From IMG/VR virus record IMGVR_UViG_2923318301_000002: a stretch of 42,689 nt of DNA. One strand, given 5' to 3'. Source of the DNA: a virus. Lineage: Duplodnaviria > Heunggongvirae > Uroviricota > Caudoviricetes. Of this stretch, positions 1-38,190 are shown in pieces. The notes beneath the pieces were generated by a model. It worked only from the letters and a program-made list of their open reading frames with translations. It had not been told where the DNA came from and did not search any database. Position 1 is the stretch's first letter; each line of letters starts with the position of its first letter. A program made the position numbers and the translations under genes.

Positions 1-327
1 ATGACTAAAAATACTCGTTTTTCCCCCGAAGTCCGTCAACGGGCAGTCCGTATGGTTCTGGAAAGTCAGAGCGAATATGACTCACAATGGGCGACAATTT
101 GTTCCATTGCTCCAAAGATTGGCTGTACGCCGGAGACTCTGCGTGTCTGGGTTCGCCAGCATGAGCGGGATACCGGGGGCGGTGATGGAGGGCTCACCAC
201 CGCTGAACGTCAGCGTCTGAAAGAGCTGGAACGTGAAAATCGTGAACTGCGCCGCAGTAACGATATCCTTCGCCAGGCTTCCGCTTATTTTGCGAAGGCG
301 GAGTTCGACCGCCTCTGGAAAAAATGA
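1..327 (+). CDS. IS3-family transposase OrfA (HTH subunit)
   Basis: 108-aa [22 protein letters not shown]... with leucine-zipper-like C-terminus; stop overlaps orfB start across an A6 run (ggaaaaaatga), typical of IS3-family −1 frameshifting. Confidence 0.85.
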
Positions 328-1214
328 TGCCACTGCTGGATAAGCTGCGTGAGCAGTACGGGGTCGGACCGCTATGCAGCGAACTGCATATTGCCCCGTC
401 AACGTATTACCACTGTCAGCAACAGCGACATCATCCGGATAAACGCAGTGCCCGTGCGCAGCGCGATGACTGGCTGAAGAAAGAGATACAGCGCGTATAC
501 GATGAAAATCACAAGGTATACGGTGTGCGTAAAGTCTGGCGTCAGTTGTTACGGGAAGGTATCAGAGTGGCCAGATGCACTGTGGCACGTCTCATGGCGG
601 TTATGGGACTTGCCGGTGTTCTCCGGGGTAAAAAGGTCCGTACGACCATCAGCCGGAAAGCCGTTGCCGCAGGCGACCGCGTAAACCGTCAGTTCGTGGC
701 AGAACGACCTGACCAGCTGTGGGTGGCTGATTTTACTTACGTCAGCACATGGCGGGGCTTCGTCTATGTGGCGTTCATCATTGATGTGTTTGCCGGATAC
801 ATCGTGGGGTGGCGGGTCTCATCGTCCATGGAAACGACATTCGTGCTGGATGCACTGGAGCAGGCGTTATGGGCCCGTCGACCGTCCGGCACGGTCCATC
901 ACAGTGATAAAGGTTCTCAGTATGTATCGCTGGCCTACACACAGCGGCTTAAGGAAGCCGGATTACTGGCATCAACAGGAAGTACAGGCGACTCGTATGA
1001 CAACGCGATGGCGGAGAGCATCAATGGTCTTTACAAAGCGGAGGTAATACACCGTAAGAGCTGGAAAAACCGTGCAGAAGTGGAACTGGCCACACTCACG
1101 TGGGTGGACTGGTATAACAATCGACGATTGCTGGAAAGGCTGGGCCATACTCCTCCGGCAGAAGCAGAAAAAGCTTATTATGCTTCCATCGGAAACGATG
1201 ATCTGGCAGCCTGA
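324..1214 (+). CDS. IS3-family transposase OrfB (DDE catalytic subunit)
   Basis: 296-aa ORF in the −1 frame relative to orfA; integrase-core-like sequence (…WVADFTYV…HSDKGSQY…YDNAMAES…). Confidence 0.9.
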
Positions 1215-24177: not shown

Positions 24178-24639
24178 CTATCTGCACTGCTCATTAATAT
24201 ACTTCTGGGTTCCTTCCAGTTGTTTTTGCATTGTGATCAGCCTCTCTCTGAGGGTGAAATAATCCCGTTCAGCGGTGTCTGCCAGTCGGGGGCTGGTTGC
24301 ATTATCCACGCCGGAGGCGGTGGTGGCTTCACGCACTGACTGACAGACTGCTTTGATGTGCAACCGACGACGACCAGCGGCAACATCAGCGCGCAGAGTT
24401 TCATTTTCAGCTTTCGCATTGGCTAATTCTCTCGAGTACTTTGCATCGAGTGCAGCAACATCACGCTGACGCTGCTGCATGTCAGCGATAGTGGCGATCG
24501 CCTGCTTCAGCTCACTGACTTTTTTATCACGCTGTTCTTTGTAGGCGATGGCGTTATCACGGTAATGATTGACCGCCCACGACAGGCAGACGATGATGCA
24601 GATAACCAAAGCATAAATAATCGCGGCGACTCTGCTCAC
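24178..24639 (-). CDS. Rz: Spanin inner-membrane subunit Rz
   Basis: Matches lambda Rz (…[20 protein letters not shown]…[18 protein letters not shown]); GTG start overlapping R stop (GTGA). Confidence 0.9.
24237..24419 (-). CDS. Rz1: Spanin outer-membrane lipoprotein Rz1 (embedded in Rz, +1 frame)
   Basis: 60-aa ORF with lipobox LVVVGC and PPPPP tract, matches lambda Rz1. Confidence 0.85.
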
Positions 24640-25169
24640 TGCTCTATCCCCCAACAGGCTAATGCGCTTTCCTGGTCACGACGAATAACCTGTCCATAGC
24701 AGTTATTTGAACGTATGCGGCAATCGCGCCCACCATCTTTTATCCACCAGCGAATCGCCTCGCATGCGCCCTTACGATCACCGGCATTCAGCCGCTTATA
24801 AAACGTCGACGGGAAACACTTACCGGGGCCAATGTTATAGGGACAGAATGACGCTATACCCGCTTTTTGTGGTTCGGTCAGTAGTACTTTAATATTGCGC
24901 TCCACCCATGCCAGCGCCTTATCACGCTCAATGGCGTTGACCTGGTCGCATTTTTCCTTCGACAGTTTCATACCGGGAAAAACGGGTTTTCCATCCACCA
25001 TCGTGGCACCCCGACAGATGGTCCAGATGCCGGACCCATCGCGGTATGCCGTTGTGTGGTTACCTTCTTTTTCATCCAGAAACTGGTCGAGAATATCAGG
25101 CGCGGGCGCACCGACGGCAATCAGTGCCAGAACGGCAGCCGACAGGCCGTATCTGATTTTTGCGTTCAT
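24636..25169 (-). CDS. SAR endolysin (T4-lysozyme-like, Qin RrrQ/P21 R type)
   Basis: N-terminal Ala/Gly-rich weakly hydrophobic segment ([18 protein letters not shown]) then E-x8-D-x5-T catalytic triad ([16 protein letters not shown]). Confidence 0.9.
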
Positions 25170-25587: not shown

Positions 25588-25803
25588 TTACTCTCCCCGT
25601 GCCGCCTTACGACGGTCCTCTCTGATTTTGAAATACAGGTTAGTCAGATATGTCAGCAGCCCAAACAGCAGACTCCCCAGCACGCCTATTGCCGCCCACT
25701 GAGACGGGGAAACCCTGTCCAGCAACTGCAGGAACCAGTAGCCCGTTCCCACCGCTGACGTGGTGTATGACACACCTGTTGTGATTTTTTCCATCTGGTC
25801 CAT
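25588..25803 (-). CDS. Pinholin (S21-like class II holin, 71 aa)
   Basis: [10 protein letters not shown]… with two in-frame Met codons (possible dual start), two TM segments and charged C-terminus; matches remembered P21 S21. Confidence 0.85.
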
Positions 25804-26110
25804 ACCCCGTCTCCCGTTATCCGGAAGCTGACAACAATAAAAAAGCCACCAGTTAACTACTGATGGCTCTGATAACTCATGCAAGCGTCTCAGACGATCC
25901 ACTGACACTACCGGTGAGTTTAACGATACCTTCCATTTGACTGGCTCACTTTTTATGATGATGCCGGTGTATTTATCTCCAGCACCAGACTTTCTATCTC
26001 AACGCCATACGTTGCATTTTTGGTAATATCCGTCAGCGTCAGTGCATTTAGTCCCACTGCCAGACCGTCTTTTATGGTCTGGAATGCCGGGCCAGTACGA
26101 TGACGTAGTA

Positions 26111-26299
26111 TCACTCCGGCTCAGTTGCACCACTGACCACCACATCACCTTCTGCTGCAATCGCCTGCATCAGGGTATAAGGGGTTATGGCCACCGGACT
26201 ACCAAACGGCTGCCAGCCCTCTTTCAGTTTATGTGTCAGCTTTTCCGCAAGATCTGACGGCGGCGCCGCCCTGACAACATCATAGTGTTTAAATGCCAT
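26111..26299 (-). CDS. Hypothetical protein (possibly DUF1737-like) upstream of the lysis cassette
   Basis: 62-aa ORF MAFKHYDVVRAAPPSDLAEKL…EGWQPFGSP… with GGTGGA RBS; the longer track ORF begins inside the IS30 terminal repeat. Confidence 0.4.
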   Translation of the reverse strand: MAFKHYDVVRAAPPSDLAEKLTHKLKEGWQPFGSPVAITPYTLMQAIAAEGDVVVSGATEPE

Positions 26300-26330
26300 G
26301 GTTCTTTCCACCATCTGAAAAATAATTCCT

Positions 26331-27396
26331 TGAATTGTCAAACCAAGTGCAACGATTTTTTGAAGTAAACTTCATAAGGTGTTTTCCAACCTAAACATTT
26401 ACGTGGTCGTAAATTCAGTTTATTGATCACCTGTTGAATATCAACTTCGCTCCACTGATTGATGTCTTGGTGCTTCGGAAAGTATTCACGAAGTAACCCA
26501 TTTGTATTTTCATTCGTTCCCCGTGTCCACGGTTGATGCGGCTCGGGGAAGTAAAATTCTACACCCAGTGCTTCTGTTACCAAACGATGTTGGGCAAATT
26601 CTTTACCACGGTCTGGCGTAATTGACCGCAATATATGTGAATCCAGCAATTCAATCATGGCTTTTTGGACTGCTTCGGCTTTTTTGGCAGGAATTTTCTT
26701 CACCAACTCAAAACGACTTTTGCGTTCCGTCAGCGTCAGCAAACAAGCTCCACCCGCTTTACCCAGTACGGTATCGGCTTCCCAATGTCCAAAGCGACTG
26801 CGATTTTGCGCCGAAATGGGACGGTCGTTCAAATGGTTGGATATCTGAATTTTGCCACGTTTTTCATGATGATTTTTTGTATGCCGTGTTTTGCCTTTGT
26901 GGCGCAGTTTGCGACTGGCTTTGCGTTCGCCTATATCAAACAACCCTGAATAAATACCACGATAAATGGTTGAATAACTAATGGATAATTCAGATTTTTC
27001 CAATTTTAATCGTGCGCTGATTTGTTCGGGCGACCAGTTTTCTGTCAGAAACTTTTCTTGCACCAAATTGAAATATTCAGGCTGCTCTAATTTGCGCTGT
27101 GCTTTGCTATTTTGACGATGCTTCAAATAGCTGTTTTGTGCGTTCGTTGCACTGTAGCTTTCTAGAGCGTGTCGTTTCAGCTCGCGAGAAATGGTGCTGG
27201 AGCTACGTCCCAGTGCTTTGGCAATTTCTGCTTGTTTTTTGCCCTGTGCGAGTAAAATCATTATCTTTTCTCGCTCGTTTATTGTAAGATGTCGGTAGGA
27301 AGTACTCATCATTTGGAAATGGTTTTTGTGTGGAAACAAAATTATATTCTAGTTGATGAGTACTTCTTTTTTTGTTGCACTTGGATTGTAAATTCA
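26331..27396 (-). mobile_element. IS30-family insertion sequence (~1.07 kb)
   Basis: Single transposase ORF flanked by imperfect terminal inverted repeats (left …tgaattgtcaaaccaagtgcaac, right gttgcacttggattgtaaattca); ends uncertain by ±1-2 bp. Confidence 0.7.
26338..27312 (-). CDS. IS30-family transposase
   Basis: N-terminal HTH (…LTINEREKIMILLAQGKKQAEIAKALGRSSSTISRELKR…) and DDE region (…HWEADTV…RGTNENTNGLLR…); start at ATGATG 27312. Confidence 0.85.
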   Translation of the reverse strand: MMSTSYRHLTINEREKIMILLAQGKKQAEIAKALGRSSSTISRELKRHALESYSATNAQNSYLKHRQNSKAQRKLEQPEYFNLVQEKFLTENWSPEQISARLKLEKSELSISYSTIYRGIYSGLFDIGERKASRKLRHKGKTRHTKNHHEKRGKIQISNHLNDRPISAQNRSRFGHWEADTVLGKAGGACLLTLTERKSRFELVKKIPAKKAEAVQKAMIELLDSHILRSITPDRGKEFAQHRLVTEALGVEFYFPEPHQPWTRGTNENTNGLLREYFPKHQDINQWSEVDIQQVINKLNLRPRKCLGWKTPYEVYFKKSLHLV

Positions 27397-27631
27397 GCTC
27401 TTTAAAATACCAGACATGTAACACAGAAAAAACACAAAACCATACCTTAAATAGAAACCTGATCATCAAGCAGATATGCATGGATAAACTACAAGACGAG
27501 ATATAAACCACCCTGCATTTAAATAAACAATAAACAACATCAGAAAAATAATTCTGCTCTATGGTTTATATTCAAAAATATCATTTATACTTTTCAGAAC
27601 ATCACCAGCAAGGCATAAACAAGGAAGCTAA

Positions 27632-27967
27632 ATGAAGTGGATTGTAATTGATACAGTTATCCAGCCATCATGCGGAATATCTTTTTCAGTCATATGGAGT
27701 AAAGTAAAATTAATAATCTGGTATCAATCGGATGCTTTCTTACCTCCTGAAAGTATATTTACACTGACTCACACAGGTATCATGCTCAATAACAAAGTGC
27801 TACCTGTAACCATTTACAACGTAGTACCATTCAATAAAACATTCTGGAATTTAATCAAAAACAGCCAGGAATGCCCTACAAATACAGATAACGTATTGAA
27901 TGAATGCTTTAATAACCGTTGCATTCTGCAAATATGTCCTTATGGACTAAAACAACAAAGTCCATAA
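27632..27967 (+). CDS. Hypothetical protein, AT-rich accessory gene (111 aa, 6 Cys)
   Basis: AAGGAAG RBS 6 nt upstream of ATG; strongly AT-rich relative to the prophage backbone; convergent with late transcription. Confidence 0.45.
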
Positions 27968-28002
27968 GGAGTTTACTCACATCTGACAAAATCAATATAA
28001 AC

Positions 28003-28193
28003 AGCCCCTCCGGAGAGGGGCTGGAGAGTGGCGCTATGTGCCATTGCATGGTGCCGGGTGCCTCCCGGTGAATTCAGTACCAGCACCTGAATCCGCGATT
28101 ATCCCATATACCTACTCGCTGATTACCCCTCCGCACAGGGGGATTCACCATGCGAAATTTTTTAACAAACTTCCCGCCGGCCAGACAATAATC
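28003..28193 (-). repeat. Structured element copy A (candidate ncRNA; paralogue of copy B)
   Basis: Shares with copy B a terminal hairpin AGCCCCTCCGGAGAGGGGCT and conserved blocks (GCATGGTGCC.GG.GCCTCCCGGT.AATTCAG; GGGGGATTCACCATGCGA; TTTTTAACAAA…GCCAGACAAT.ATC); stem partners are conserved while loops differ. Confidence 0.5.
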
Positions 28194-28465
28194 GCCAGCC
28201 TGAATTATGAGCAACGTGGCATTTTACGGGAAAACTGTTTTCTGCAGTAAAAAGGCCCGCCGGAGCGAGCCTGGAAGGATAGCGGTCATGTGATGCCGGT
28301 TTCCCGGTAACTCAGCATCGGTATCTGAGTCAACGTTTTCTCTACTGGGTCATTTCCGATACGTTCCGCCTTCCGGCAGACTTTCATCACGTCAGAAAAT
28401 ATAGCACCCTGAGTAACAGGACAGTACTCAGAATTCAGGAAACTGTGACACATCCTGCACAGAAA

Positions 28466-28663
28466 AGCCCCTCCGGAGAGGGGCTGAAGTATAGCCTAAT
28501 TTCTGTCTGTCGCATGGTGCCAGGGGCCTCCCGGTAAATTCAGCCTGTCTACTGAATTTGCATGTTCTCTGGATCATACACTTTGCCAGATGCCCCGCCG
28601 CTGAGGGGGATTCACCATGCGATGTAATTTTTAACAAATTCTCCGGCAGCCAGACAATCATCA
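28466..28663 (-). repeat. Structured element copy B (candidate ncRNA; paralogue of copy A)
   Basis: As copy A; on the minus strand the terminal hairpin is followed by TTTTCTGTG. Confidence 0.5.
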
Positions 28664-29000: not shown

Positions 29001-29076
29001 TGGTGGCCCTTGCTGGATTTGAACCAGCGACCTGGCGATTATGAGTCGCTCGCTCTCACCACTGAGCTAAAGGGCC
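29001..29076 (-). tRNA. tRNA with CAU anticodon (Met or Ile2/lysidine type; ileZ-like of lambdoid phages)
   Basis: 76-nt cloverleaf folded by hand: acceptor GGCCCTT/AAGGGCC, D arm GCTC…GAGC, anticodon loop CTCATAA, T arm GCTGG-TTCAAAT-CCAGC, 3' CCA encoded. Confidence 0.9.
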
Positions 29077-29219: not shown

Positions 29220-30041
29220 TTACCTAGTTACCTTTTTTAACTGCCGCTCAGCCCATGCTTCTTCAATATCAAACCGGGTCACCAGCGCATCATAGAATTT
29301 CTTAACTGTTTTTTCCCATGACGCGCGTGTTATCTGGTTTGTCACCTCGCATATAGCATTAAATGTCTCCGTTGATGGTAGTCTTTCATAGCCACGACCA
29401 CCACAACGCTGGCAGTCTCTGATAACAGGCATACCACGTTTTACCGACTCTTCACGATGAATGGCGACACCACGCCCACGGCAATCCTTACAGGCGGTGG
29501 AAACCTCACCCTTTCCGCCACACTCCGGACAGGCAACTTTTACCACCTCCCTGACTTTTTTCCATTCTTCCCAGTAAGACGAATACACACCTTTCGTACA
29601 CTTTGCCCATACCGGCGGCTTACCATCCGGATACTGGACCTTGTTTGTAAAAACTACGCTTTCAATAAATTTTTCCCCATAGCAACAAGGGCACTGCTTT
29701 TTACTCGCTGCGCTGCGGGCATAATCCTCAAAAGCGTACGAAGCCATAATGCGCATCACTAACGGTTTTATTTCTGCCGGAAGTTTTCTCAACGCCGCAA
29801 CACGATCGCACCGACTGAGTGCATAATCTGCCAGTAATTCTGTTGCCCGCGCCCTGTCATTCATACTGATGCCCATTTTCCCCAGGAACGCAGAAAACCC
29901 CATCTCAGCCCGATTCTGTGTCATGCCCTGCGCGGCCATCACATCAGTGATACTCAGCGCATCTTTTGACGTTGAGGCCGATGCATCGGTCAGGCCAGGG
30001 GATTTTGGGGAGTAGTATTTCGGTAAATCTTCCAGTTTCAT
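29220..30041 (-). CDS. Putative late-gene antiterminator (Q-position) with four DnaJ-type CxxCxGxG zinc-finger motifs
   Basis: 273-aa ORF after rusA (ATGA overlap) and before the pR'/tR'/tRNA block; motifs CPCCYGEK, CPECGGKG, CKDCRGRG, CQRCGGRG; function inferred from synteny. Confidence 0.5.
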   Translation of the reverse strand: MKLEDLPKYYSPKSPGLTDASASTSKDALSITDVMAAQGMTQNRAEMGFSAFLGKMGISMNDRARATELLADYALSRCDRVAALRKLPAEIKPLVMRIMASYAFEDYARSAASKKQCPCCYGEKFIESVVFTNKVQYPDGKPPVWAKCTKGVYSSYWEEWKKVREVVKVACPECGGKGEVSTACKDCRGRGVAIHREESVKRGMPVIRDCQRCGGRGYERLPSTETFNAICEVTNQITRASWEKTVKKFYDALVTRFDIEEAWAERQLKKVTR

Positions 30042-31924: not shown

Positions 31925-32080
31925 TTACTCCTCAGGTTCGTAAGCTGTGAAGACAGCGACCTCCGTCTGGCCGGTTCGGATTCGTACCTCGCAGAGGTCT
32001 TTCCTCGTTACCAGTGCCGTCACAATGACGGTTAAACAGATGACGATCAGGGCGATTAACATCGCCTTTTGCTGCTTCAT
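31925..32080 (-). CDS. hokD: Hok/Gef family type I toxin (HokD/RelF-like)
   Basis: 51-aa ORF MKQQKAMLIALIVICLTVIVTALVTRKDLCEVRIRTGQTEVAVFTAYEPEE matches remembered HokD; an in-frame upstream extension and a structured leader are present. Confidence 0.85.
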   Translation of the reverse strand: MKQQKAMLIALIVICLTVIVTALVTRKDLCEVRIRTGQTEVAVFTAYEPEE

Positions 32081-32339
32081 AGCCTGCTTCTCCTTGCCTT
32101 TCGGCACGTAAGAGGCTAACCTAGATTTGCCGTTCATAGATTGAGCCTCAGATTAATGTTAAGCGTCTTGCAGGACGCGTAATGTTAACTGGGGCTTTTC
32201 TCTATCTGCCTTTTGGTGTTCATGCCTGAGACAGATAGCCTCAAGCACCCGCAGTCATTCTACTTAACTAAGATTTCCCCGCAAACCGTTTTTGTCCGGC
32301 ACAGTAAATATCCAACTAAACCAATGGCGTTCGCTGTAT

Positions 32340-38132: not shown

Positions 38133-38190
38133 TTTCTGGTGACGTTTGGCGGTATCAGTTTTACTCCGTGACTGCTCTGCCGCCCTTTTT
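38133..38190 (+). ncRNA. dicF: DicF-like Hfq-dependent sRNA (cell-division inhibitor RNA)
   Basis: tttctggtgacgtttggcggtatcagttttactccgtgactgctctgccgcccttttt matches remembered DicF, including the terminator hairpin and U-tail; immediately upstream of dicB. Confidence 0.7.

Follow-up and report, generated by a model that had tools for sequence, protein, structure and literature searches.

Organization of the locus

We analyzed a stretch of viral DNA of 42,689 nucleotides (IMG/VR record IMGVR_UViG_2923318301_000002), called the window here. According to the listing of its open reading frames (ORFs), positions 27632 to 27967 of the plus strand encode a protein of 111 aa, with an ATG start and a stop codon. 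The original prediction, made from the sequence alone, had described this ORF as an accessory gene with a strong ribosome-binding site in a markedly AT-rich block, and we found it as described. There is a Shine-Dalgarno-like AGGAAG (5/6 matches to AGGAGG) with its end 4 nt upstream of the ATG, and the GC content is 0.324 between positions 27399 and 27999 and 0.339 within the ORF, compared to 0.504 for the whole window. When the 42.7 kb were scanned in 600-bp segments, those with the lowest GC content all started within 27251 to 27401, about 3.6 standard deviations below the mean. The protein was said to contain six cysteines; the count is five (C14, C81, C92, C97, and C102).

The ORF, identified below as iraL, is convergent with late transcription, as had been noted, and the late genes are all on the minus strand. 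The minus-strand features around it comprise the gene of the Q antiterminator (29220 to 30041), a tRNA gene with a CAT anticodon downstream of Q (29001 to 29076; tRNA-Met according to ARAGORN, tRNA-Ile in the PGAP annotation of identical loci), a DUF1737 gene (26111 to 26341; Pfam PF08410, E value of 6e-17), and the genes of a P21-type holin (25588 to 25908) and a lysozyme (24636 to 25169). Q-dependent late transcription would therefore run antisense to iraL. The "IS30 element" and the "structured repeats" of the original prediction, between which the ORF is located, correspond to the IS30 family element ISApl1 on the left (26329 to 27398) and to minus-strand repeats of the STnc100 small RNA (sRNA) on the right. 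The DUF1737 gene is the left neighbor on the late strand and has the same position in strain M217, strain CFT073, and phage vB_EcoS-640R1, with a remnant in phage 2851. As listed, its ORF enters the end of ISApl1 by 13 nt, and an ATG at 26297 to 26299 lies outside the element.

The Rfam model of STnc100 (RF02076) identified two full copies, at 27993 to 28181 (132.5 bits, for a gathering score of 47) and at 28457 to 28650 (138 bits), as well as a third, degenerate unit (28246 to 28421) that scored 30 bits (E value of 3e-4), which is under the gathering score. The three units form a tandem array between the tRNA gene and iraL in the direction of late transcription, each with a terminator-like hairpin, that of the degenerate unit being located at 28253 to 28272. 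In related genomes, PGAP places small "hypothetical protein" fragments on the STnc100 units. A terminator scan showed that the 3' ends of iraL and of the array converge, the hairpin of the first STnc100 copy (28002 to 28023) being located 35 nt past the iraL stop codon. This hairpin is followed by a T-run on the minus strand only, so that read-through from iraL would be antisense to STnc100.

Identification of the AT-rich gene as iraL

The profile and structure-prediction searches that the original prediction had suggested, when run on the 111-aa protein, led to the IraM family of RssB anti-adaptors and to an IraM-like fold. The protein matched the NCBIfam entry NF007393, "anti-adapter protein IraM," with 162 bits (curated cutoff of 121 bits), the match spanning residues 1 to 110 of the protein and positions 1 to 113 of the 114 in the profile. 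It also matched PHROG 4407 from end to end (E value of 8e-73), and a phmmer search against the PDB retrieved chain A of 8TWD, which is IraM (E value of 8.7e-32). The alignment with IraM from Escherichia coli K-12 is gap-free over 107 aa with 63% identity.

Identity with IraL from strain CFT073 (c1429, WP_000871291.1) is much higher, at 109 of the 111 aa, with two conservative substitutions (I25V and T98I), and the coding sequences share 332 of 336 nt (98.8%). In CFT073, the gene belongs to the potB prophage and was reported "on the potB genomic island" (PMC4045071). The gene order is also common to both loci: RusA, Q, tRNA(s), DUF3927, STnc100, the convergent iraL, DUF1737, holin, DUF1327/YdfR, and lysozyme. 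The loci differ in the number of tRNAs, one in the window versus three (Ile, Arg, and Arg) in CFT073, and in the placement of insertion sequences, the window having ISApl1 at 200 bp upstream of the start of iraL transcription and CFT073 having IS200C upstream of the tRNAs. Hryckowian et al. (2014, PMC4045071) defined iraL by an identity to CFT073 of no less than 95% across the entire coding region and of no less than 96% for the promoter/upstream region, together with the mapped start sequence. The window gene has 98.8% identity over the coding region and 96.5% over positions -200 to -1. Based on its identity to c1429 and on the same gene order, we conclude from the sequence that the AT-rich ORF is iraL, an RssB anti-adaptor gene of the IraM family.

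The function of the ORF, given as unknown in the original prediction, has thus been studied experimentally, since iraL was named and characterized in 2014 (PMC4045071), and identical loci already carry the NCBI annotation "anti-adapter protein IraM." In CFT073, deletion of iraL decreased the level of sigma-S in log phase and shortened its half-life from ∼5 to ∼2.5 min, and complementation restored the stability of sigma-S (PMC4045071). His6-tagged IraL and CBP-tagged RssB copurified in both directions, and in a two-hybrid assay the part of RssB bound by IraL was the N-terminal receiver domain, as opposed to both domains for IraM (PMC4045071).

IraM from K-12 (YcgW/ElbA) is an RssB anti-adaptor induced by Mg2+ starvation (PDB entry 8TWD; PMC10844676). 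Like the window iraL, the K-12 iraM gene is AT rich (GC content of 0.34) and adjoins prophage DNA (e14), and its product has all five cysteines of the window protein, which is longer by four C-terminal residues (QQSP). The two genes differ in genomic context and in expression, IraM being induced by stress and IraL acting in log phase (PMC4045071).

The original prediction had also proposed a horizontally acquired cargo gene, and this was borne out by the foreign composition of iraL and by its location between Q and the lysis genes in a lambdoid prophage. The gene has the attributes of a lambdoid prophage "moron," namely, a deviating GC content (0.32 versus 0.50), its own promoter, and a position that has the Q/tRNA block on one side and the holin/lysozyme block on the other. 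Expression of iraL in lysogenic CFT073 supports this status. It is very likely, in our view, that the window iraL is a lysogenic conversion gene that would stabilize RpoS by blocking RssB and would be expressed from its own promoter in the lysogen. For annotation, this would mean a prophage that rewires the general stress response of its host, with RpoS stabilized in growing cells, a trait associated with uropathogenic E. coli and Shigella.

Promoter and transcription start of iraL

The 5' end of the CFT073 iraL mRNA was determined by 5' RACE as ACATCACCAGCAAGGCATAAACAAGGAAACCA (PMC4045071). This published end, ACATCACCAGCAAGGCATAAACAAGGAA..., matches the window starting at position 27599, where we place the putative start of transcription. 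The resulting 5' untranslated region (UTR) has 33 nt (27599 to 27631, plus strand) and contains the Shine-Dalgarno sequence AGGAAG at 27622 to 27627; it differs from that of CFT073 by two substitutions beside this sequence, at 27627 and 27629. The original prediction had mentioned an AT-rich promoter-like leader upstream of the ORF: the AT richness is real, and most of this DNA is promoter and upstream sequence rather than leader, given a UTR of just 33 nt.

Upstream of the start, we compared two plus-strand segments with other iraL loci. The core promoter region, from -100 to -1 (27499 to 27598), is identical to that of CFT073 at 98 of 100 positions, the differences being at 27569 (-30) and at 27598 (-1; A for G), and identity is 96.5% when the comparison is extended to -200. 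The AT-rich segment from -200 to -101 (27399 to 27498), which the insertion sequence separates from its former neighbor, is 100% identical to the uninterrupted site of M217. In K-12, a CFT073 fragment extending from -100 to the stop codon suffices to raise sigma-S (PMC4045071).

From the position of the start site, we assigned the likely -10 element to TATACT at 27586 to 27591 and the likely -35 element to TTTATA at 27565 to 27570, which reads TTTACA in CFT073. The substitution at 27569, C in CFT073 and T here, is located within this likely -35 hexamer. The T allele is common to M217, the MRSN346595 lineage, and phage vB_EcoS-640R1, and it may correspond to "iraL2," a promoter variant noted in strain JJ1886 (PMC4045071). 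The mapped iraL promoter was missed by a generic sigma-70 scan, which returned no more sites than in shuffled sequence; the promoter assignment therefore rests on the published 5' RACE sequence. Inspection by eye for a PhoP box, as expected for iraM, yielded a single good half-site, GGTTTA, at 27563 to 27568. In CFT073, iraL mRNA was detected and found to be regulated, with levels that were higher at 37°C and also upon mutation of fur.

ISApl1 insertion upstream of iraL

ISApl1 is the element that mobilizes mcr-1. The copy in the window occupies 1,070 bp (26329 to 27398, minus strand) between the DUF1737 gene and iraL and is flanked by a 2-bp target duplication, TC, at 26327 to 26328 and 27399 to 27400. 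It is 99.4 to 99.6% identical to plasmid copies of ISApl1, 21 of 27 positions are identical between its terminal inverted repeats, and its transposase contains the domains HTH_38 and rve. Comparison with the empty site of M217 showed an insertion of 1,072 bp, which corresponds to the 1,070-bp element and the 2-bp duplication. Among 5,426 complete E. coli genomes, we found none with the ISApl1-iraL junction and 322 with the same 7-kb region at ∼100% identity and without the insertion sequence. An independent ISApl1 copy is located within the iraL ORF of the MRSN346595 lineage, in the same prophage type; because of this second copy, ISApl1 appears to have targeted the AT-rich iraL module repeatedly.

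The end of ISApl1 is separated from the iraL start site by 200 bp and is therefore outside the -100 fragment that is sufficient for activity. By replacing all the DNA beyond -200, the element could take away or bring regulatory input. This insertion and the C-to-T substitution in the likely -35 element are the features that are particular to the window.

Both features have to be considered in an alternative reading, in which the gene is iraL by descent and would be silent or much weakened here, owing to the -35 substitution, to ISApl1, or to both, with no role in RpoS stability. The T at 27569, 30 nt upstream of the mapped start, argues in this direction, and some iraL copies were reported to have a point mutation in the -35 element that leaves their expression uncertain (PMC4045071). 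So do the uniqueness of the insertion among the 5,426 genomes and the outright knockout of iraL by ISApl1 in the MRSN346595 lineage, which implies that the gene is dispensable. However, the T allele is shared by M217-type genomes and the ORF is intact in the two records inspected, which speaks against decay of long standing; TTTATA retains four of the six bases of TTGACA, and the sufficient -100 fragment is untouched by the insertion. We consider that loss of expression is unlikely and infer that the window allele would be expressed and active despite the -35 substitution and the presence of ISApl1 200 bp upstream.

Predicted fold of IraL and contacts with RssB

We then modeled the protein with AlphaFold2, using 13 family sequences. 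The core was predicted with confidence (pLDDT of ∼76 to 91 over residues 1 to 80) and consists of strands at residues 2 to 11, 16 to 22, 26 to 33, 42 to 45, 49 to 52, and 55 to 66, followed by a helix at residues 69 to 77. With Foldseek, this core superposed on chain A of 8TWD with a TM score of 0.90 and a root mean square deviation of 1.3 Å over 78 columns, with 65% identity. The crystal structure of IraM revealed a PmrD-like beta-barrel that bridges both domains of RssB, remodels the segmented helical linker of RssB, and occludes its sigma-S-binding 4-5-5 face (PMC10844676).

The residues of IraM that contact RssB were grouped into clusters I to III in the same study (PMC10844676), and we used these clusters to evaluate the window protein. 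Cluster I, which contacts RssB's N-terminal domain, is identical to that of IraM at all five positions. Three of the five residues are identical in cluster II, which contacts the C-terminal domain, and the other two are conservatively replaced (T13S and L75I). In cluster III, which contacts the linker and helix alpha-8, two of the four residues are identical, the changes being H63N and I64V. This pattern fits the reported behavior of IraL, which would keep the interaction with the N-terminal domain and differ from IraM elsewhere. The two substitutions relative to CFT073, I25V and T98I, are outside the listed contact residues of IraM.

We propose the following mechanism. The iraL gene, a "moron" between Q and the lysis genes of a lambdoid prophage, would be transcribed in the lysogen, opposite to the silent late operon, from a sigma-70-type promoter of its own (start at 27599). 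Residues 1 to 78 of IraL would form a PmrD-like beta-barrel and one helix, followed by a cysteine-rich tail, and the protein would bind the response-regulator-like adaptor RssB, such that sigma-S (RpoS) would not be handed over to the ClpXP protease. Sigma-S would then be longer lived and would accumulate already in exponential growth, with the general stress response of the host armed in advance. The structural part of this mechanism is extrapolated from IraM to IraL, because cluster III differs and because IraL reportedly binds RssB in a different way.

The core of the model also superposed on the PmrD structures 4HN7, 2JSO, and 2RQX, with a Foldseek probability of 1.00 and TM scores of 0.70 to 0.75. 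PmrD, the connector between PhoPQ and PmrAB, has the same small beta-barrel-plus-helix fold with 12 to 20% identity, and, like IraM and IraL, it binds a receiver-domain protein (PMC10844676). The partners and outcomes differ: PmrD protects PmrA from dephosphorylation, and IraL would block substrate delivery by RssB. The matched PmrD chains have 81 to 88 residues and lack the four-cysteine tail. A local Pfam-A scan of the 111-aa protein returned no family at E values up to 1, the PmrD family (PF11183) included; only the fold is shared. The PF11183 label is nevertheless precomputed on homologs in a large protein collection, in conflict with the local scan.

The fold match and this label are what would favor a connector for a phosphorylated response regulator other than RssB, such as PmrA, or a protein acting mainly in a phage process, RssB not being the main target in either case. 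We rejected this reading, which we regard as highly improbable. It is opposed by the low identity to PmrD and the absence of a match in the local Pfam scan, by the copurification with RssB, the two-hybrid data, and the sigma-S phenotype obtained with the 98%-identical CFT073 protein (PMC4045071), and by the conservation of all the cluster I contacts.

Cysteine-rich C-terminal tail

Beyond the core, the protein contains the motif C81-P-x9-C92-x4-C97-x4-C102-P-Y-G, encoded at 27872 to 27946 (codons 81 to 105 of iraL). In an alignment of 15 members with identities down to 32%, the invariant columns included C81, P82, C92, C97, C102, P103, and G105, and C14, which contacts RssB in IraM, was variable and often replaced. 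The four-cysteine pattern is kept in a Salmonella RssC-like fragment (partial, from a phage record). The tail of IraM was removed for crystallography as it was proteolytically unstable, and it was described as "less conserved" (PMC10844676); contrary to this description, the C-terminal tail is conserved at key positions.

In the anti-adaptor papers that we searched, neither cysteines nor zinc or disulfides were found to be discussed for IraM. A Cys4 module formed by the tail (residues 79 to 111), which would bind a metal or sense redox conditions and set the stability or activity of the anti-adaptor, is a speculative and rather doubtful possibility. AlphaFold2 gave no confident model of the tail (pLDDT below 50), and the prediction therefore neither supports nor excludes a metal site. 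Such a module, if real, would tie the stabilization of sigma-S to metal or oxidative status.

Distribution and conservation of the family

We next looked into the distribution of the module. A megablast search with positions 27340 to 28000 retrieved it from 1,478 of the 5,426 complete E. coli genomes, where it is annotated as IraM. The records with at least 99% identity to the window numbered 287, and M217-type genomes share the T allele with 100% identity. We inspected two of these records (M217 and phage vB_EcoS-640R1), and in both, as in the window, the iraL ORF is intact. A scan of species-representative genomes, the search patterns of which missed RssC of Salmonella, found relatives in Escherichia and Shigella only, apart from distant ones (31% identity) in Pseudescherichia and in a metagenome-assembled genome of the Enterobacteriaceae.

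Within Escherichia, further clusters of the family have 53 to 76% identity. As judged from these sequences, the family is broader than an IraL/IraM dichotomy and has a third, unnamed clade in Stx2c and Stx2a phages, which has 75% identity to IraL and 65% to IraM. Its representative in phage 2851 (FM180578.1, ∼24239 to 24562) is an ORF of 107 aa with seven cysteines and a GC content of 0.41. In phage 2851 and in Stx2-converting phage 1717, the ORF is flanked by a DUF1737 remnant and, on the opposite side, by STnc100, in the same cassette as in the window, and its orientation between Q and the lysis genes is likewise convergent with the late operon. Unlike the window iraL, it is located directly downstream of stx2B (stx2cB in phage 2851). 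Among the matches listed, the majority of the records of Stx2c and Stx2a phages leave it without annotation, and we found no functional test of it in the literature. This stx2-adjacent third clade, the apparent repeated targeting by ISApl1, and the invariant four-cysteine tail go beyond the literature that we consulted for the family.

Comparison of the IraL, IraM, and Stx-phage clades yielded dN/dS values of 0.10 to 0.17, with synonymous sites near saturation, which indicates that the frame is under purifying selection. The frame is free of indels over 107 codons in these three clades, and few gaps were needed down to 32% identity. The original prediction had left room for a frame devoid of conserved homologs or for a region transcribed only in the antisense direction; homologs with a conserved frame proved to be plentiful, and a sense start was mapped by 5' RACE in CFT073, the sequence of which is present here. 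The idea that the ORF is not a gene and represents an untranslated spacer or an antisense stretch of the late transcript, which its opposite strand and read-through by a Q-modified transcript might suggest, is thus refuted by the purifying selection, the conserved frame, the crystal structure of a paralog, and the mapped sense start, and we give it practically no credence.

Elsewhere in the window, Rfam models identified an ALIL pseudoknot at 282 to 398 (plus strand), a frameshift signal of the IS3 family that points to another insertion sequence near the start of the window, the sok antitoxin RNA of a hokD-type locus at 32075 to 32250 (minus strand), and DicF at 38134 to 38185 (plus strand). 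These three elements are typical of the content of Qin/Rac-like lambdoid prophages.
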